NCBI GenBank assembly: GCA_021786105.1 | Contig: JAJYNW010000006.1 | Span: forward strand, 7,012 to 71,011 | Origin: a bacterium | Lineage (GTDB): Bacteria > Patescibacteriota > Microgenomatia > Daviesbacterales > UBA10151 | Direction: 5' to 3' | DNA length: 64,000 bases | Shown: piece by piece, positions 7,334-63,554 of the stretch | Layout: every line of letters begins with the position of its first letter | Numbering within the stretch: position 1 is the first letter of the stretch | Position numbers and translations under genes: made by a program | Notes under the pieces: generated by a model | Told to the model about the DNA's origin: nothing | The model's input: only the letters and a program-made list of their open reading frames with translations | The model's database searches: none

Positions 7334-7357
7334 CCACCTAAAGGTGGGGTCAGTTAG
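7334..7357. terminator. GC-rich hairpin ccccacc-taaa-ggtgggg with an A-tract 5' on the plus strand (T-tract on the minus strand)
   Basis: Perfect 7-bp stem immediately after the DUF3800 gene. The U-tract is on the minus-strand side, so it may terminate minus-strand readthrough or act bidirectionally. Confidence 0.5.
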
Positions 7358-7471
7358 TCAGCTAGTTCTTTCGAACTTTTCCCAGCCTGGGAATTTGTCG
7401 CTGATAACTTGTTATAAACGTATACTACCACAAGTACCCTTAAAATACAATCCCAATTCTAGCTTTAAAAA

Positions 7472-19133: not shown

Positions 19134-19176
19134 ATTGGAAAAAACATTTAAATTCTAGGGAAAGGGGGTGAAAAAA

Positions 19177-19767
19177 ATGGGAAAAATAATTTCAGGTTTA
19201 TTAGGTTTGGTAATGGTAGTGGCAGTAGTTTCCGGCACAGCTTATGCTGTATTTTCAGATCAAGTACAAGTAAGTGGTGTAACTTTGTCTACCGGTAATG
19301 CTGATTTACAAATTTGGGATGGAGATGGATGGCAAGAGAGTCTGTCATCAGCACTATTTACCGGTAACACTTACCCGGGTTGGCAGCAAGGTCAATATTT
19401 TGCTTTGCAAAATAATAGCGCTTCAAACATCGGATTGGATGTTACCGCTAGATTGACCAGTGCACCGTCCGGTAACTGGGGATTGCTCAGCCCGATAGTC
19501 CAGGTAGCAGTGGTTCAGTATGATAGTCAAGCTGCTGCATTGGCTGCTGTTGCCGCCAACAACCCCGGTCTTGGTGGAGTAGATGCTAGTACAGGATGGC
19601 AGACTTTAGCCGCATGGAATGCAAGTCCGATAGCTATTAGTACTAATTTGTTGAAGGGTGCACAGGGTGATTTTGTGATTTGGGGAAAGATTCCCTCAGA
19701 TGCAGGTAACTCTATTGCAAACCAGTCGCTTACGACTGATTGGGTGTTAATCGGTACTCAGCATTAA
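19177..19767 (+). CDS. TasA/camelysin-like secreted protein with a SipW-cognate-type signal peptide ('..SGTAYAVFSDQ')
   Basis: N-terminal TM followed by 'GTAYAVFSD' resembles the TasA/CalY signal region 'GGGTFAYFSD'. Encoded next to a SipW-type peptidase. RBS 'aaaggggg'. Confidence 0.65.
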   Translation: MGKIISGLLGLVMVVAVVSGTAYAVFSDQVQVSGVTLSTGNADLQIWDGDGWQESLSSALFTGNTYPGWQQGQYFALQNNSASNIGLDVTARLTSAPSGNWGLLSPIVQVAVVQYDSQAAALAAVAANNPGLGGVDASTGWQTLAAWNASPIAISTNLLKGAQGDFVIWGKIPSDAGNSIANQSLTTDWVLIGTQH

Positions 19768-19833
19768 TAAAGGTTTGAGTGCTTACTGATGGCATAAGGC
19801 AACTTGTGCTGTCAGATAAGGATTTAACTTTTT

Positions 19834-21861
19834 ATGAAGAAAACTTTAAAAAAGATTAATTTAGTATGGAAGAAAGTTGAAAAACCTGCAAAAATTGCCG
19901 GGAAGATTTTAGAGTGGGGAGTTTTTGCTGTTTTGGTTTTAATCTTTACCGTAGTGTTATCACCGCTTCTGCCGACTAAAAAATATGTTTCTACTTATAT
20001 TGTGTCTTCCGGTTCAATGGAGCCAACAATCAAAACCGGCTCAATCGCTTTTATTCAGCCGATAAAAGCAGATCAGGTTAAAGAAGGAGATATTGTTACT
20101 TTTACCCAACCAACAGATTCGACAAAAATTATCCTGCACCGGATTTTTAAAGCAGAAAACCAGAATGGAAATTTAAGTTTTCAAACCAAGGGTGACTATA
20201 ATAATGGCCCGGATATGTGGAACGTCCCTTCCACTTTAATGCAGGGGAAATATATTGCAGCCGTTCCTTATTTAGGGTATCCGGCCATGCTAATGAAAAC
20301 TCCAAAAGGTTTTGCTATAATAGTCGGCATTCCTGCCCTGCTCCTGCTCTTCCTGCAAATTAAAAAAATAAAGGAGGGTATTGAAGAAGAAGTCCAGAAA
20401 AGAACTGAGAGAGCTTTAAAGAAAGCAAAGCCTGTTAAAACTGACCTTTTAAGTATTTTGATGGCGGTAACCTTACTTTCTATACTTACTGGTTACAGCA
20501 GTATGAAATCAGTATCAGCTCTTTTTGTGTCTAAGGTAATGGTCAGCGGAGTTTCCATTTCCGTTAAGGATTTTGTGCCTCCGCCGGTCCCAGCCTTACT
20601 TTTGCCAGAGAATAATTCCAGCAGAAACACTAATGGGATGGTGATGGATTGGACTGATGTTTCTGATTATAAAGATATGCACAATCCGGTTTATTATATT
20701 TACCAAAGCGCTTACGATCCAGATTTTAAATCTGTTGCTTATACTTCCGCGCATCTTGCTGTTTCCCAAATTCCCGCTCCAGGAACTCCTAATGGAATTT
20801 ATTATTGGCATGTTAAGGCTTGCGACTCCATCGATAATTGTTCGGCCTGGTCAGATGCATGGAAGGTAACTGTGGACAATACTCCTGCACCTTCACTTAC
20901 CCCCACAGCTACACCAAGTGCTACCCCAACTCCAACACCTTCCCCCACACCATCCCCTTCTCCTAGCGTGGTTATCAATGAAGTGATGTGGATGGGGTCG
21001 ACTAAATCTGTGGCTGATGAATGGCTGGAGCTTCGTAATATGACTGATCATGAAATTGATCTTTCTAGCTGGCAAATTGAAAATGCAGTTTCCGGAGAGG
21101 GTGGCCATTTAGAAATTCCTGCACATAAAGTTATTCCGGCAAATGGATATTTCCTAATTTCCAACTACGAAGATGATGAGACTCATTCAGCTTTAAATGG
21201 GAGTTTACATATAGATTACCAGACAACAAGCATAAATTTTGAAAATGATTATAGGGAAAATGGGGCTTTGATTCTTAAAGACAAAGATAAAAATGTGATA
21301 GATTCAACCCCGGATCCAGTTTCTGGTAATTGGCCGGTGGGAAATGATGCTGGTTCAACCGGTTTGCATCAGTCCATGGAAAGAAATAATATTCCCGGAG
21401 ATGGGAGGTTGGTCAGTAGTTGGCATGCCTGCACTGATTCAGCTTGCCAAAGCACGGATTACTGGACTGTGAGTGGGGATAATTATGGAACTCCCAGGGC
21501 TTTAAATCATTCTGACAATGATCCAAGTACGACACCAACACCAACTCCTACTCCCACGCCCGCCCCAACACCAACTCCGACACCATCGACAACAATCAAT
21601 CCGGTTCCTGAATCGTCACCGTCAGCAAATTTAGGTTCCTCATCCGAGCCGGAACCTGAAGCATCTTTATCTCCGGCTCCTTCGTCTGCTCCTGAACCAA
21701 GCATGACACCGGTTCCTTCAGCGAGTCCGTCACCAACGCCGTCAGCAGAACCTGCCTCGAGTCCGGAGCCCTCTCCCACCCCTTCACCGTCACCTGTAAC
21801 TGGATCTGTTTCAACTCCGGAGCCATCGCCGTCTGCAACTCCTGCCCCCAAACGAAAATGA
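19834..21861 (+). CDS. SipW-type signal peptidase I (S26) fused to a lamin-tail domain (LTD) and Pro/Thr/Ser-rich low-complexity regions
   Basis: 'YIVSSGSMEPTIKTGSIAFIQP' is peptidase box B with the catalytic Ser, and 'ILHRIF' carries a His. LTD: 'VVINEVMWMGS..DEWLELRNMTDHEIDLSSWQIEN..IPANGYFLIS'. PT-rich linkers at 20884-20960 and 21520-21850. Confidence 0.7.
   Translation: MKKTLKKINLVWKKVEKPAKIAGKILEWGVFAVLVLIFTVVLSPLLPTKKYVSTYIVSSGSMEPTIKTGSIAFIQPIKADQVKEGDIVTFTQPTDSTKIILHRIFKAENQNGNLSFQTKGDYNNGPDMWNVPSTLMQGKYIAAVPYLGYPAMLMKTPKGFAIIVGIPALLLLFLQIKKIKEGIEEEVQKRTERALKKAKPVKTDLLSILMAVTLLSILTGYSSMKSVSALFVSKVMVSGVSISVKDFVPPPVPALLLPENNSSRNTNGMVMDWTDVSDYKDMHNPVYYIYQSAYDPDFKSVAYTSAHLAVSQIPAPGTPNGIYYWHVKACDSIDNCSAWSDAWKVTVDNTPAPSLTPTATPSATPTPTPSPTPSPSPSVVINEVMWMGSTKSVADEWLELRNMTDHEIDLSSWQIENAVSGEGGHLEIPAHKVIPANGYFLISNYEDDETHSALNGSLHIDYQTTSINFENDYRENGALILKDKDKNVIDSTPDPVSGNWPVGNDAGSTGLHQSMERNNIPGDGRLVSSWHACTDSACQSTDYWTVSGDNYGTPRALNHSDNDPSTTPTPTPTPTPAPTPTPTPSTTINPVPESSPSANLGSSSEPEPEASLSPAPSSAPEPSMTPVPSASPSPTPSAEPASSPEPSPTPSPSPVTGSVSTPEPSPSATPAPKRK
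21520..21850. repeat. Low-complexity coding repeat (TPTPTP / SPEPS) forming the C-terminal tail of 19834..21861
   Basis: Runs of ACn CCn codons. The minus-strand ORFs 21507..21851 and 21596..22039 are shadow ORFs of this repeat. Confidence 0.7.
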
Positions 21862-22976
21862 AAAAAATACTTAAAGTTTTAATATTGGTTTTGATAGGTT
21901 TTTCCTTTTTTCCGGCTTTGGCAAGGGCAGCAGACTTGAATATCGATTGCAATTCTTCTGACTGCACCAAAACCGGGCTGGAACCTATTTTCAGTACTGC
22001 TCTTGATGGAGTCTGGCATCCTGGAAGGATTATTACCAAGACGATTAATTTGAAAAATTCGGGAGCAGATACTAGTGAAATGGCTATTAAGGGAACAAGG
22101 GTGGGTGAGGCTGGTGCTTTAGAGCAAGTGATGAATGTCAGTTTGTCGGCGCCGGAAGGGCCGGTAATCTGGGCCGGCAGTTTGGCTGATTTTTATGCCC
22201 AGGACGTAATCAGGATGGGTGTTTTTGAGCCGGGTAAGGATTTGGATTATAACTTTACAGTCGGTATGGACTACGGGGCGGGTAACGATTACCAGAATTT
22301 GCAGGCAACTATGGATCTTTCCGTAGGTTTTTGGACTGAACCACCTTCCAGCCCCACTCCGTCTCCGGCCTCAACTTCCAACGGCAACGGGAGTAGAGAT
22401 GTATTGGGGGCAGGAGTCAGTGCTCCTTCTTGTAATGATGCCAAGCCGGCAACTCCTAATCTACTTTCAGCTGTAGTTACCGGTCCGAACCAGGTTACTT
22501 TAAACTGGTCTAAAGCTGATGGTAGTGTCAGCTATTACCTGGTGGCTTATGGGCTGGAATCCGGGAAGATGCTTTATGGCAATCCTAATGTGGGGGGTGC
22601 AGATACCACTTCTTATACGGTTAATGATTTATCCGGCGGAACAACTTATTATTTTAAAGTCAGGGCCGGTAACGGTTGCACCCCGGGAGAGCTTTCCAAC
22701 GAATTATCAGCCACCCCAGGAGGCCAGGCAGTAACCGGTACTCCGGCAGGCTTTTTGCCGGGTGTTTTAGGAGTGACAAACGAAGAAGCAGTGCCTTCGT
22801 CAGAGCCGGAGAGTTCCCAATCAGGTATTTTAGGTGCTGAAACATCACCAAAACCGAAAGAGGCTGTAATAGTGGGAGGTTTTATGGGTAAACTGGGTTG
22901 GTTTGTTTTAGGACCTGTGGCATTATTTGTTTTTCTTTTCGGACGCAAGCTTTTAGGTAAAAGATTTCCGTTTTAG
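21858..22976 (+). CDS. Secreted TasA-like domain protein with a fibronectin-III-like domain and a C-terminal TM anchor; paralog of 37028..37687
   Basis: Sec signal '..ALARAADL'. N-terminal domain aligns with 37028 ('AADLNIDCNSSDC..LKNSGADTSEMAIKG' vs 'AADLEISCSGSDK..LKNDSGADQVISVQG'). FN3-like 'VTLNWSKADGSVSYYLVAYG..TTYYFKVRAGN'. C-terminal TM 'WFVLGPVALFVFLFG'. Confidence 0.6.
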   Translation: MKKILKVLILVLIGFSFFPALARAADLNIDCNSSDCTKTGLEPIFSTALDGVWHPGRIITKTINLKNSGADTSEMAIKGTRVGEAGALEQVMNVSLSAPEGPVIWAGSLADFYAQDVIRMGVFEPGKDLDYNFTVGMDYGAGNDYQNLQATMDLSVGFWTEPPSSPTPSPASTSNGNGSRDVLGAGVSAPSCNDAKPATPNLLSAVVTGPNQVTLNWSKADGSVSYYLVAYGLESGKMLYGNPNVGGADTTSYTVNDLSGGTTYYFKVRAGNGCTPGELSNELSATPGGQAVTGTPAGFLPGVLGVTNEEAVPSSEPESSQSGILGAETSPKPKEAVIVGGFMGKLGWFVLGPVALFVFLFGRKLLGKRFPF

Positions 22977-35007: not shown

Positions 35008-35040
35008 TTGACAAGAGTACTCCTTTTGTTTTTAAATAAG
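35008..35040 (+). promoter_or_regulatory. Candidate promoter (TTGACAAGA..) upstream of the second TasA/SipW locus
   Basis: TTGACA at 35008-35013, shared 'TTGACAAGA' with 18994. The -10 is weak (tttaaat). Confidence 0.3.
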
Positions 35041-35147
35041 CCTCTGAGGTAAAAACATACACCTGCGGAAATAATATTCTTTCTGCCCCAAATTAATGCT
35101 CATACTTCTGTCCGTATGGTTTACCCGCTCAGAAAGGAGGTGAACAT

Positions 35148-35705
35148 ATGAGAAGAATTCTTTTAGCCACTGTAATCGCCACTGCTTCTCTTTCGGTAGC
35201 TGTGATGACAACTTGGGCTGCCTGGACTTCGTCTGTAACAGTCAGTAATAACGTTATTACTACAGGCAGTGTTAGCTTGCAAGTTTCTCTTACTGGTAAC
35301 AGTAATGATTATGGATCATCTGTATCCTCAAGCACAGCGATATCCGGTTTAATGCCTACCAATACAAGCAGTAAAGGTACGACATTCTATGTAAAAAACA
35401 ACAGCTCAACCGGGGTTAATTTTAACCTGGGAGCTGTAGGATCAGCTGTTATTTCTGGGAGTCCTGCACCTGCCGATTTAACCAGTCTGCAGATATCAAT
35501 TGTCCCGAGTGGAAGCTCAGCTTCAACAATTGATGCTAACTATCATACATTGTCTGCATGGGGATCCAGTCAGACTTTGGGTACTTTGAGTTCAGGAGCA
35601 AGCCAACCATATGATATATATGCCAAGCTTGCTACCACCGCAGCCGATGATTGGCAAGGAAGACAAGTAACCTTTGCCGTTACGGTTACCGGTTCACAGA
35701 TCTAG
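35148..35705 (+). CDS. TasA-like secreted protein with a SipW-cognate-type signal ('..TTWAAWTSS')
   Basis: AGGAGGTG RBS. N-terminal TM followed by 'TWAAWTSSVTVSNNVITTG'. Composition resembles 19177 ('VKNNSSTGVNFNLGAVG'). Confidence 0.55.
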   Translation: MRRILLATVIATASLSVAVMTTWAAWTSSVTVSNNVITTGSVSLQVSLTGNSNDYGSSVSSSTAISGLMPTNTSSKGTTFYVKNNSSTGVNFNLGAVGSAVISGSPAPADLTSLQISIVPSGSSASTIDANYHTLSAWGSSQTLGTLSSGASQPYDIYAKLATTAADDWQGRQVTFAVTVTGSQI

Positions 35706-35775
35706 AATTTTTCTAGTCTTTTTGGGAGTCAAAGGGACGCCTTTGGCTCCTTGTAAAGGTTAGAAGTTTAATTAT

Positions 35776-36330
35776 ATGAAGTTGATTTGGCCAAAACATA
35801 CAATTTTGTTTACTTTTAAAGTATTAATTTTTTGCCTGGCGGTTTTTATGGCCATATTGTCAGCGTTGGTGTATTTGCCTTTGAAAACACCGCTTAAAAT
35901 GTTTGTAGTTTTATCCGGCAGTATGAACCCGGTAATTCCGGCCGGTTCGATTGTAATGGTTGAGCGTGAGCCGGTCTCGATTCAAAAGGGAGAGGTGATC
36001 ACTTTTATCCATCCAAATAAACCACTGGAGTTTGTTACCCACAGAGTTATTAATGTTGAGAGTCAAGGAAATACAGCTGTTTATCAAACAAAGGGAGATG
36101 CTAATAATATTCCGGATCAGTGGGTGGTAAAAAAAGAGGCTGTTTGGGGTAAAGCCACTTTTGTGGTGCCATTTTTGGGTTATCTAATCAACTTTGCCAA
36201 AACTAAGTTGGGGGTAGTGTTGATAATAGCGTTACCGCTGTTTTTAATAGCTGCCAGCGAAATGACAGTAATTGTTAAAGAAATTAAACGCCTTAGGCAG
36301 GCAAAGATTAAACTGCCGCAACTGGACTAA
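35776..36330 (+). CDS. SipW-type signal peptidase I (standalone, 184 aa)
   Basis: 'VVLSGSMNPVIPAGSIVMV' is box B with the catalytic Ser. 'VTHRVI' carries a His. N- and C-terminal TM helices. Confidence 0.8.
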   Translation: MKLIWPKHTILFTFKVLIFCLAVFMAILSALVYLPLKTPLKMFVVLSGSMNPVIPAGSIVMVEREPVSIQKGEVITFIHPNKPLEFVTHRVINVESQGNTAVYQTKGDANNIPDQWVVKKEAVWGKATFVVPFLGYLINFAKTKLGVVLIIALPLFLIAASEMTVIVKEIKRLRQAKIKLPQLD

Positions 36331-37031
36331 TGAAAAAAAATAAATCCTTATTTTTAGCAATAATTTTGATTTTGAGTTTTAACGTGCTGATGCTGGTGCC
36401 AACTACCCGGGCGCTTTTTACAGACAGTATCCAAGTGACAAATAACAATATTTCTACCGGCACCTGGCCGGCACCTACGCCAACCCCAACCGCAACTCCG
36501 GCTCCCACACCAACACCTACCCCGGCACCAACTGCTACACCAACCCCTGCTCCTACTGCCACTCCGGCACCGACGACGACTCCTAACCCGAATGCGGTTG
36601 ATACCAGAATTGATCCTGCTACTGCCACTGCTTCAGCTAGTCAGAACTTTACTGTTAATTTAGTAGTCAGTAACGCCCAAGATACGGGAGGATTCCAGAC
36701 AACTATTTCTTATGACCCAAACAAAGTAACTTTTGTCAGCGCAGCTTTGGGTCCATTCCTTACCAGTACCGGTAGAGCTCTTTATGGGACATTTGGGCCA
36801 ATGGTAGATTCTACAGCCGGGACTGTAACCTATGGAGCTAATACCCTCGGCCTTGCTCCGCTTGGACCTAATGGTGAAGGAACTATTGCCAGCTTTACCT
36901 TTACAACTAAATCAGTCGGCCAAAGCAGCTTGAATATTACTGATATGGAGGTTGACCGCCGTTTAGATACAGGTTCGGGTTCAATCCAGCCTAACGGCCA
37001 AATAACAGGAGGAACCGTCACTGCCCAGTGA
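36330..37031 (+). CDS. Secreted cohesin-like domain protein with a SipW-cognate signal ('..TTRALFTDS') and a PT-rich linker
   Basis: 'TRALFTDSIQVTNNNISTG' signal-type motif. PT linker 36470-36600. Cohesin-like 'QNFTVNLVVSNAQDTGGFQTTISYDPNKVTFVSAALGPF'. Confidence 0.55.
   Translation: MKKNKSLFLAIILILSFNVLMLVPTTRALFTDSIQVTNNNISTGTWPAPTPTPTATPAPTPTPTPAPTATPTPAPTATPAPTTTPNPNAVDTRIDPATATASASQNFTVNLVVSNAQDTGGFQTTISYDPNKVTFVSAALGPFLTSTGRALYGTFGPMVDSTAGTVTYGANTLGLAPLGPNGEGTIASFTFTTKSVGQSSLNITDMEVDRRLDTGSGSIQPNGQITGGTVTAQ
36470..36600. repeat. PT-linker coding repeat (PAPTPTPTATPAPTPTPTPAPTATPTPAPTATP)
   Basis: The minus-strand ORF 36308..36628 (GVGVAVGAGV...) is its shadow. Confidence 0.7.
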
Positions 37032-37687
37032 AACTTACTTTGAAGTTATTCGTTATAACTATAATGCTGGTTTTTACTCCTTTGCTACTAACAGGCTTAG
37101 TCAAAGCCGCGGATTTGGAAATTAGTTGTTCCGGTTCAGACAAAGATTGTTCAAAATCAACTGATGCTTCCTTGTTTAGCGCAACTGACGGGTTGTGGTT
37201 TCCCGGAAAAACTGTTTCCAAAATTATCTCTTTAAAAAATGACAGCGGGGCAGATCAAGTAATATCCGTCCAGGGGATCCGAAGAGGCAGAAGAGACGGC
37301 TTGGGGAATGTGTTATACCTGACTTTTGCCAACAACCAAACCAGTCAGATTGTTTGGCAGGGCACTTTAACCAGGCTTGATGCTAATAAATTAATTAATC
37401 TGGGTAGTCTTGCAGCTGGGGATAGCCTGGAAGTAAAGACGTCTTTAGGGATGTTAAAAACTGCCTCTGCTGACTTCGAAAACCAAAAAACTACCTTTGA
37501 TCTGACTTTTAATTTCCGAAGTGACAGCGAAAAAAATAACAAGACTGAAGAGAGAAAGAATGAGGGCCGGGTTTTGGGGCAATCAACTGAGGCGACCCCA
37601 GAGTCTTCCTGGATTTCAAAAATATTTACAGCCATTCATGGATTTTTCTCAAGAATTTTCAGTGTCTTTAATGTCTTTGCCCGGTGA
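37028..37687 (+). CDS. Secreted TasA-like domain protein; paralog of the N-terminal domain of 21858..22976
   Basis: Sec signal '..LVKAADL'. Motif-by-motif alignment with 21858 ('DGLWFPGKTVSKIISLKNDSGADQVISVQG'). Confidence 0.55.
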   Translation: MKLTLKLFVITIMLVFTPLLLTGLVKAADLEISCSGSDKDCSKSTDASLFSATDGLWFPGKTVSKIISLKNDSGADQVISVQGIRRGRRDGLGNVLYLTFANNQTSQIVWQGTLTRLDANKLINLGSLAAGDSLEVKTSLGMLKTASADFENQKTTFDLTFNFRSDSEKNNKTEERKNEGRVLGQSTEATPESSWISKIFTAIHGFFSRIFSVFNVFAR

Positions 37688-37735
37688 CAGCCTGAATTGA
37701 CATATGCAAGTTACCTATAGTAAACTTTAGAACTT

Positions 37736-38941
37736 ATGTCTATAGAATCTAAATTAAATAAGATAGAAAAACTTCTCCCGGTTAGTCGCAAGGGTGGAAT
37801 AAATATAGTTGGTGGAGTATTAATTACTGGTACGGCCTTGTTGATTGCTGCAAATCCGGATGCTGCAGCAGCATTTTTTGCTAAATTGAGTTCCCCGAGT
37901 GCAGTTTCCAGTATTCCTGCCGTTCCTACCCCAGGATTAGGAGCAATGACTGTTTACCAGGTTGAAAATGCCAACCCCACCAATCTTCTTGTTACATCAA
38001 TTATTACGGATACTGTGAGCTTTAAAACAGTCATAACTAATACTATTCCTGCATGCAGTACTTCCCAGATCCATCTTAGAGATATTAATCAAGTTTCCAG
38101 TCCTTTTAACGGAGCAATGACTGTTAGCGCGGATCAACCCATGAATGCAAGAATTGTCGGTTATGATTATCCGCCCGGGGTTGTGGTTACTACGACAATA
38201 AATCAGCAAGTACAAGCGGTAGATTTTAACGGAGACGGAAAAATAACCAATGCGGATATCCAACCTCCAGCTACCCGTTGGGGAATTGACGAATGTAATA
38301 CTGCTTATGCTTCGCAATATGATATCAGAAACGCAAATGGTGAAAAATATCCTGACGGCAAAATGAAAACTGGAGATATCCAAGCAGTATCCACCATGTG
38401 GGGTATGACCTACACCCTGCCCATCACTAATACGGCTCAGGCAGCGGCTTTAAAGCGGCCTTTGGCAATGGCGCCACAAGTGGATTTAAAACTTCAACCG
38501 TCAGATATTACTGTTTTGCCTGGAGGGACTTTCACCGTTAGCATTGAAGCGGATAATGTGACTGATCTGGCTGGATTTGAGGCTACACTGAAATATGACC
38601 CTGCGAAATTACAAATGACGGGTACTCTGTTAGGTAAGACAAGCCGACCCATGAAGCAACTAAGCCGTCCAACAGAAGACGGCAACGGTATTGTGGTAGA
38701 AGGTCATAGTCAGGGGATGCTTCCGGCGGGAGATAATGGCAATGTTGTTTTGGAAACCTTTTCTTTTAAGGCAGGAGGAGCGGGTAGTATTGATTTAACA
38801 CTGAGCGGTGCAGAAGTAAACTCACGCCTTAATGGCGGAATGGGTATTAGGTCTATAACTAATGCCAAGGTTTTAATTTCTGACCTTTTGCACAGGCTCT
38901 ATTTGCCTGGGGTATTCCGCTTATCGCCCTCGAAGCCTTAA
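37736..38941 (+). CDS. Cell-surface protein with a dockerin-like Ca-binding repeat and a cohesin-like domain
   Basis: 'VDFNGDGKITNADIQ' is a dockerin-type repeat. 'FTVSIEADNVTDLAGFEATLKYDPAKLQM' is a cohesin-like signature. N-terminal TM. Confidence 0.5.
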   Translation: MSIESKLNKIEKLLPVSRKGGINIVGGVLITGTALLIAANPDAAAAFFAKLSSPSAVSSIPAVPTPGLGAMTVYQVENANPTNLLVTSIITDTVSFKTVITNTIPACSTSQIHLRDINQVSSPFNGAMTVSADQPMNARIVGYDYPPGVVVTTTINQQVQAVDFNGDGKITNADIQPPATRWGIDECNTAYASQYDIRNANGEKYPDGKMKTGDIQAVSTMWGMTYTLPITNTAQAAALKRPLAMAPQVDLKLQPSDITVLPGGTFTVSIEADNVTDLAGFEATLKYDPAKLQMTGTLLGKTSRPMKQLSRPTEDGNGIVVEGHSQGMLPAGDNGNVVLETFSFKAGGAGSIDLTLSGAEVNSRLNGGMGIRSITNAKVLISDLLHRLYLPGVFRLSPSKP

Positions 38942-63373: not shown

Positions 63374-63384
63374 AGCGAGGCCAG
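63361..63384. terminator. Hairpin gcctcgc-ttaaa-gcgaggc directly after the DUF3800 paralog, with an A-tract on the plus-strand 5' side
   Basis: Same geometry as the hairpin after the first DUF3800 copy (7334..7357). Confidence 0.45.
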
Positions 63385-63554
63385 TTGTACAGGTAGTACT
63401 AATTTCTTAGAACTCGGCGGCTCACCGTCCTTTGTCCCTGCCAACTTGTTGTAAATGTATTATATCACAATCTGTATTAAAAACTCATCTCAAAATCAAA
63501 ACACCCATAAACTAAGGTTTAATGAGAAAATAAGTCTGGTATAATTTTCCAAGA

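Follow-up and report, generated by a model that had tools for sequence, protein, structure and literature searches.

A five-gene locus in a Patescibacteria genome most likely encoding a TasA-like surface fibre and its dedicated signal peptidase

A five-gene operon on contig JAJYNW010000006.1 (assembly GCA_021786105.1) of a Patescibacteria bacterium most likely encodes a TasA-like surface fibre together with a dedicated signal peptidase, and we put the probability of this reading at roughly 0.55. The operon, called locus 2, lies in a 64,000-nucleotide stretch of the contig (the window), which also carries a paralogous module, locus 1. Its genes are named A to E, and B is the SipW-type peptidase (Table 1). 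The product would be an extracellular fibre of the TasA type, assembled by donor-strand exchange with the help of the peptidase and of three accessory proteins. Patescibacteria are tiny and mostly uncultivated, and for many of them a life attached to other cells has been suggested. Their means of attachment beyond type IV pili are poorly understood. The names of identical or near-identical database proteins place the window within this phylum near Microgenomates/Daviesbacteria.

Locus 2 as a conserved operon

The five open reading frames (ORFs) of the initial annotation were recovered at the same coordinates, all on the plus strand and spanning 35148–38941. B and C overlap by 1 nt and C and D by 4 nt, and the intergenic gaps are 70 nt between A and B and 48 nt between D and E. 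A strong Shine-Dalgarno sequence lies ahead of A. The order A-SipW-C-D-E is kept in four other Microgenomates/Daviesbacteria-like genomes, with unrelated flanks in each: Daviesbacteria STC_54 (L001), a JGI metagenome contig (L003) and two Logan assemblies (L007 and L008/L009). This conservation, together with the scores of hidden Markov models (HMMs), ruled out chance ORFs. Metagenome scans with the C alignment and with the A alignment returned no matches.

Table 1. Features of locus 2 and of the paralogous locus 1 in the window
Feature	Position	Strand	Description
A	35148-35705	+	185 aa, candidate major subunit
RNA stem-loop	35718-35758	+	minimum free energy -28.5 kcal/mol, z -4.9
B (SipW)	35776-36330	+	184 aa, SipW-type (archaeal/ER-type) signal peptidase I
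C	36330-37031	+	233 aa, signal, strand, Pro/Thr linker and cohesin
C residues 1-46	36330-36467	+	signal peptide and 18-residue mature N-terminus (A/LFTDSIQVTNNNISTGTW; slash, cleavage site)
C residues 47-233	36468-37031	+	Pro/Thr linker, then cohesin (about aa 97-210, 36618-36959)
D	37028-37687	+	219 aa, TasA-fold domain and C-terminal helix
E	37736-38941	+	401 aa, membrane anchor, Ca-loop module and cohesin
E membrane anchor	37796-37852	+	aa 21-39, N-terminal transmembrane segment, KD19 1.93
E duplicated Ca-loop/helix module	38189-38431	+	aa 152-232, repeated loop-helix pattern
E cohesin	38468-38845	+	about aa 245-370, PF00963 28.6 bits
Locus 1 (paralogous module)	19168-22976	+	A', SipW fusion, D'
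A'	19168-19767	+	locus-1 subunit
SipW fused to strand and LTD protein	19834-21861	+	locus 1
D'	21858-22976	+	fn3 and C-terminal transmembrane segment, tail KD19 1.85
aa, amino acids; ER, endoplasmic reticulum; KD19, Kyte-Doolittle 19-residue hydrophobicity; LTD, lamin-tail domain.

The peptidase and the subunit-like proteins A and D

B scored 115.1 bits against TIGR02228, the model of the archaeal/ER-type signal peptidase I (cut-off 51.85), which bears out its description as a standalone SipW. The Ser/His/Asp motifs SGSM (S49), THRV (H89) and GDAN (D108) are present in the translation, and there are one N-terminal and one C-terminal membrane segment. The score against NF046067, the equivalog model of Bacillus SipW, was 114.2 bits and stayed below the cut-off of 190. 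On sequence grounds, B is the same type of peptidase as Bacillus SipW and not its ortholog at the equivalog level.

The candidate substrate A carries a SipW-type signal, with 22.2 bits against TIGR04088 and a curated cut-off of 19. The predicted cut falls at TTWA/AWTSSVTVSNNVITTG, and the mature protein starts AWTSSVTVSNNVITTGSV. The signal of D is a classical AXA one, cut at VKA/AD, and TIGR04088 matched neither D nor E. D is composed of a TasA-fold domain with two conserved cysteines (about aa 27–165), a charged linker with VLGQST and an amphipathic to hydrophobic C-terminal helix (aa 195–218). The HMM PF12389 (Peptidase_M73) gave no match on A, leaving it outside the family at the gathering score, and no Pfam or NCBIfam model matched D. 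Six of the 11 members of the A alignment do match PF12389 at E ≤ 1, the best at 8.1e-7. Profile-profile comparison was carried out with hhalign. With larger alignments, the A family aligned to the PF12389-annotated neighbouring subunits at 98.6% (E 9e-16), the D domain to the same set at 97.8% (E 1e-12) and D to A at 95.3% (E 2e-8); smaller alignments reached only 65%. Because this comparison links both proteins to PF12389 subunits, A and the N-terminal domain of D are, as judged from profiles and predicted models, beta-sandwiches of the TasA/camelysin superfamily that the Pfam model misses.

The predicted structures point the same way. A is modelled as a pilin-like beta-sandwich, and its top fold matches include the TasA fibre, AbpA and the chaperone-usher pilins FimA and CsuA/B. 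A beta-sandwich/jelly-roll fold matching that of solved TasA was found in the predicted structures of both A and D, and AbpA is also among the fold matches of D. Residues 21–40 of A have a predicted local distance difference test (pLDDT) score of 50–66, which is compatible with a mobile strand and is not evidence for one. Sequence searches of A and D against the PDB gave nothing useful. The initial annotation had taken A for a TasA-like protein with a SipW signal and D for a TasA-like paralog of the locus-1 gene at 21858 (D'). Both descriptions hold, the latter also by a pairwise identity of 32% over 170 aa (E 8e-26).

Protein C carries the strand without the body

C consists of a signal, an 18-residue copy of the mature N-terminus of A, a Pro/Thr linker and a cohesin; there is no TasA body. 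BLASTP aligned the N-termini of A and C with 12 of 23 residues identical (E 9e-6), and the A-family HMM matches C at profile positions 5–41 only. In all five C orthologs the N-terminal strand is conserved and is followed directly by the proline-rich linker. The cohesin scored 31.8 bits against PF00963 (gathering score 24.1), and those of two orthologs 33.2 and 36.8 bits. The sole family match in the signal region was TIGR04088, which covers the cleavage region but, at 12.8 bits (E 0.099), is below the cut-off of 19. Of the earlier description of C as a SipW-cognate cohesin protein, the cohesin part is well founded, but the signal itself falls short of its family model, although it does match the N-terminus of A.

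The same layout was observed elsewhere. Proteins made of a strand, a proline-rich linker and a cargo also occur in two further contigs (L011 and L013), and a strand with cargo forms a C-terminal extension of SipW in locus 1, L010 and L012. Adaptor strands are closer to the subunit of their own operon than to those of other operons: the cognate BLOSUM sum was 132 vs a permutation mean of 71, and 10 of 720 permutations reached the cognate sum. These values come from 18-mers that were registered by hand and compared without gaps. The C ortholog of L001 (9146–10417) has an extra GDSL/SGNH-like insert of about 200 aa between strand and cohesin (weak Pfam match, E 0.0016), a sequence feature which suggests that the adaptor can carry an enzyme as cargo.

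Protein E, the second cohesin and the calcium-loop module

The second cohesin of the locus is found in E, where PF00963 scored above the same gathering score; in two E orthologs the scores were as low as 16.9 and 17.9 bits. C and E have cohesins that share 31% identity (E 4e-15), and that of E matches cellulosomal ScaB cohesins in a PDB sequence search (E 2.9e-5). The cohesin part of the initial annotation of E was thus confirmed, but the dockerin part was not. PF00404 gave 16.6 bits when run on all of E and 19.8 bits when the region was excised, both below the gathering score of 22.9; the match covers profile positions 27–49 only, which is one of the two repeats, and an ortholog scored 13 bits. 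EF-hand and FG-GAP models score weakly on the same loop, below the dockerin model. When a profile of the module from five orthologs was searched against the PDB, calmodulin EF-hands were matched at E about 1e-4, including the helix before the loop, and no dockerin was among the best 60. In the 64 kb, DFNGDGKITNAD in E is the sole loop of canonical EF type to be found. Each of the five E orthologs has two copies of the repeat D[VI]Q..(G)(R)[WYF]. The window, L003 and L007 have canonical calcium ligands, and those of L001 are degenerate. As far as the sequence tells, a duplicated EF-hand-like calcium-loop pair is the better name for the module. The cohesin/dockerin docking pair of the initial annotation was overstated, and pairing of C with E in this manner is kept as hypothetical. 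The clearest duplicated repeats of E, GQVTVRSVQAVAGRW and GIITVADVQTVAGRW, were seen in L008 (10637–11386; the same in L009).

The E protein of L008/L009 is 249 aa long and ends after the calcium-loop module, without a cohesin. It is not a contig truncation, because an opposite-strand methyltransferase gene comes next. Since this shorter E keeps the anchor and the calcium-loop module, these two would be the constant part of E. A further beta-rich domain (about aa 63–149, 37922–38182) lies between anchor and calcium-loop module and is conserved in all five orthologs, with N78, T87, T91, G126, A127, T129, A132 and GY(D/N/T) at 142–144 invariant; Pfam had no match for it.

Two Pfam-significant cohesins and the ScaB match of E could indicate a cellulosome-like display, in which the cohesins of C and E recruit dockerin-bearing enzymes and the TasA-like proteins serve as scaffold; the weak hydrolase-like insert of the L001 C ortholog would fit as well. 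However, this is highly improbable. No glycoside hydrolase is present among the annotated neighbouring genes, no other calcium-loop or dockerin-like module lies within the 64 kb, and the one module that resembles a dockerin does not pass the dockerin HMM. The cohesins sit singly in two proteins instead of together in a multi-cohesin scaffoldin, and the four other cassettes are likewise without enzymes. Neither a multi-cohesin scaffoldin nor dockerin-bearing enzymes were thus found in the window and the cassettes.

Proposed assembly of the fibre

The assembly roles of A, C, D and E are what we infer from sequence, predicted models and analogy. The cohesin proteins C and E look like docking or anchoring adaptors. 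SipW would cleave A and C after an A-x-A-like site. The freed N-terminal strand of A would then enter the next A subunit to build the fibre, as is the case with TasA, where the residues just after the SipW cut (28–38) are the donor strand (PMC9674648). C has no groove of its own and so could only donate a strand; it would therefore nucleate or cap one fibre end, as TapA does, and place its cohesin there. With its TasA fold and its membrane helix at the C-terminus, but without a strand of the SipW type, D is likely a groove-only subunit, which would accept the last strand and tie the fibre to the cell. The membrane-anchored E is the likely partner of the cohesin of C through its calcium-loop module, and a contact of C with E might be a second anchoring route or a link between fibre tip and cell.

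Several points weigh against this assembly. Strand insertion by A, C or D is a proposal drawn from sequence and single-chain models. The D model is of medium confidence (pLDDT 66.5, four sequences), and the C-terminal helix of D is amphipathic rather than clearly transmembrane in this subfamily (KD19 1.40). D and E would be redundant if both are anchors, and the evidence does not fix which fibre end C occupies. The C-E interaction is conjecture, because the E module fails as a dockerin and its calcium ligands are degenerate in L001. Finally, the similarity of C and A at the N-terminus could merely reflect what SipW needs on the P' side of the cleavage site, and the operon-specific strand similarity, resting on hand-registered ungapped 18-mers, fits recognition by SipW equally well.

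A rival explanation does without any fibre. A and D would be camelysin-like envelope proteins and C an exported cohesin, all of them secreted or surface proteins dependent on SipW, and the shared 18 residues would be the recognition element of the peptidase. We regard this as unlikely, since in both solved members of the superfamily, TasA and AbpA, the donor strand follows immediately on the cleavage site. In addition, A and D are homologous to PF12389-type proteins, and the best structural neighbours of A are overwhelmingly donor-strand pilins. Bodyless proteins of strand, linker and cargo (C, those of L011 and L013, and the SipW fusions) have an obvious role as strand donors, and a dedicated peptidase for such a protein would otherwise be hard to explain.

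On the other hand, the same fibre could be built with the opposite topology, running from the membrane through the anchor of E and its calcium-loop module to the cohesin of C, with the strand of C in the first A and with D capping the distal end or being an independent surface protein. The functional analogue of C, TapA, has been described as an anchoring and assembly protein found with the membrane, E has a clear N-terminal transmembrane segment, and the E of L008/L009 retains the anchor and the calcium-loop module while dropping the cohesin. Nevertheless, this orientation seems quite unlikely: a C-terminally anchored D-family protein follows the SipW/adaptor gene in every related operon examined, most of which are without E, and the adaptor cargos elsewhere (LTD, fn3) look like adhesins, not anchors.

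The D family and related operons

Word-indexed searches under-sampled the homologs badly, with 9 matches for A and 3 for D. A full HMMER scan returned 1098 clusters of D relatives at E ≤ 1e-3, 300 of them at E ≤ 1e-10. No model matched the N-domain in 44 sampled members, in whose tails fn3 (20), LTD (4), DUF11 (3) and LPXTG (1) were recognised. Among the full-length members, 120 of 144 have a transmembrane-like tail, and some carry LPXTG and adjoin a sortase gene.

A contig scan with the D alignment, which relied on two exact peptide patterns, gave 3 loci only. Five other neighbourhoods were compared. The gene orders are M73, SipW fusion and D in L010; M73, M73, SipW, an 853-aa protein and D in L011; an A-like gene, SipW fusion and D in L012; a subunit, a 450-aa protein, D with LPXTG and a sortase in L013, where no SipW was recognised; and M73, SipW, a protein with TasA-like and LTD parts and D in L014. 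Thus, a D-family gene comes directly after TasA-like and SipW (or SipW-fusion) genes in four of the five (L010, L011, L012 and L014), and locus 1 of the window shares this form.

Some further features of these operons were recorded. In L013 (742–1695 and 9057–9716), a sortase gene comes after one D-family gene with LPKTG, and an exosortase (EpsH) is encoded a few kb upstream. This D protein runs on into a second module led by a signal peptide, as do P0124 and P0152. A gene for a CAP-domain (PF00188) protein stands directly 3' of the D-family gene on two unrelated contigs (L011, 7284–8150; L012, 8626–9465) and may belong to the locus-1-type operon as an additional conserved accessory. D-family proteins (window 37550–37687 and 22780–22976; D-family P0015–P0161) have a short motif, [VI]LG[AEQ]x[TS], after their last extracellular domain and ahead of the hydrophobic anchor at the C-terminus. 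In its strict [VI]LGxxT-type form, it occurs in 53 of 144 tails vs 2 in the control region. It lies just upstream of LPXTG in three members, and in many others it precedes a multi-pass tail that starts with Cys-x-x-Cys-Trp-Trp. The motif has no match among database models, and it could be a processing or sorting signal.

These operons allow a wider proposal, which we hold only tentatively: locus 2 may be one example of a widespread and undescribed TasA-derived pilus of Patescibacteria. It would comprise shaft subunits, a dedicated SipW, strand-only tip adaptors with interchangeable cargo (cohesin, lamin-tail, fn3 or hydrolase), sometimes fused to the peptidase, and D-family anchors. The D family, of about 1100 clusters and unannotated, would supply the TasA-fold, C-terminally anchored terminator or anchor, and E would dock the tip cohesin and so link fibre tips to cells.

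Expression signals and the RNA hairpin of locus 2

An RNA stem-loop between A and sipW is seen in all five cassettes. All 16 pairs are intact across the cassettes, with one GC<->UA compensatory pair, and no U-tract is present 3' of the stem. The hairpin may act as an intra-operon attenuator or transcript stabiliser that sets subunit excess, and in this way would keep A in excess over the accessory proteins. Consensus scans stayed at background, with 9 promoters found vs 9.2 expected and 4 terminators vs 5.0. The TTGACA at 35008 was rejected as a promoter, having no acceptable -10 box.

Locus 1 and other features of the window

Both loci hold a TasA-like subunit, a SipW and a D-type protein, in agreement with the parallel drawn by the initial annotation. 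Their SipW domains are 33% identical (E 3e-27), and A is 23% identical to A' with a pairwise E of only 0.003. In locus 1 the counterpart of C is fused to the C-terminus of SipW. This peptidase is thus joined to its own probable substrate: the peptidase domain is followed by a basic loop, a second hydrophobic segment and then the strand. The internal segment MKSVSA/LFVSKVMVSGVSISVKDF-PPPVP (about 20440–20570) resembles VFSDQVQVSGVTLSTGN of A'. Encoded in the 3' part of the fusion are more domains, with a lamin-tail domain among them, and a long Pro/Thr/Ser tail. Such fusions of SipW and substrate also occur in L010 (318 aa) and L012 (994 aa).

A duplication with later diversification had been suggested for the two loci. 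The paralogy is supported, but a recent tandem duplication was ruled out, because D' is 50% identical to the D' of another Patescibacteria genome (L005) vs 32% to D of locus 2. Each locus type is also found alone in other genomes. By these sequence comparisons, the loci are old paralogous lineages which happen to lie 12 kb apart.

Locus 2 is flanked by housekeeping genes, a Nramp transporter upstream on the opposite strand and pyruvate kinase downstream. Its GC content of 0.41–0.45 is like that of the neighbours, and recent horizontal transfer is not indicated. Two copies of the DUF3800-II RNA motif (Rfam RF02961; gathering score 43.2) lie on the minus strand of the window, at 7348–7415 (73.8 bits) and 63379–63452 (55.5 bits).

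Significance and comparison with known systems

Locus 2 is most likely an operon of the TasA/SipW donor-strand fibre type extended by two cohesin proteins, an arrangement that we did not find described. The literature searched mentions TasA homologs of Patescibacteria only where a survey counts their distribution (PMC9245690); it yielded no description of TasA-type fibres in bacteria of the candidate phyla radiation and nothing on SipW or TasA combined with cohesins. If the fibre reading is true, TasA-type donor-strand fibres would provide modular surface display in Patescibacteria, with an anchor family that lacks a database model. The layout of strand and cargo would offer an easy route to placing any domain on such a fibre. 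C would also be a natural 'minimal TapA', a strand without a body, and so bears on the question of what TapA does.

The nearest known system is tapA-sipW-tasA of B. subtilis, in which a dedicated SipW-type peptidase likewise stands beside a TasA-superfamily subunit with a SipW-type signal. In both systems there is a second SipW substrate with a subunit-like mature N-terminus, TapA there and C here. The N-terminus of TapA resembles and complements the TasA donor strand, and TapA has been proposed to supply the first strand (PMC9674648; PMC10151520). However, the subunit gene comes first in locus 2, D and E are without a Bacillus counterpart, B falls below the equivalog cut-off of Bacillus SipW, and the host belongs to the Patescibacteria. 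No domain is common to C and TapA; C has a cohesin, and its strand stands without a folded domain beside it. The two share the logic alone.

The archaeal bundling pili (ABP; AbpA/AbpB) of Pyrobaculum calidifontis are also similar. Their pilin AbpA, a jelly-roll protein related to TasA, is assembled by donor strands and is a fold match of both A and D; its kinship to them was detectable here by fold only and not by sequence. The authors of that work proposed that the minor partner gives the first strand and bears distal adhesive domains. Unlike locus 2, the ABP operon lacks a signal peptidase of its own, and cohesin or calcium-loop proteins are absent from it.

With cellulosomes, locus 2 shares cohesins that pass the Pfam threshold (C and E), the match of E to solved ScaB cohesins and, in E, the joining of a calcium-loop pair with a cohesin, as in adaptor scaffoldins. 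Unlike cellulosomes, its calcium-loop module is no demonstrable dockerin, enzymes and a multi-cohesin scaffoldin are absent, and one cohesin, that of C, is carried by a signal and strand of the SipW type.

Chaperone-usher pili, represented by FimA and CsuA/B, resemble the proposed fibre in having shaft subunits, a special first subunit and a terminating or anchoring last subunit. This likeness is one of fold and logic, not of detectable sequence homology, and locus 2 has neither chaperone nor usher, nor is there an outer membrane. In this comparison, the strand-only adaptor C would be the reverse of the groove-only FimH.

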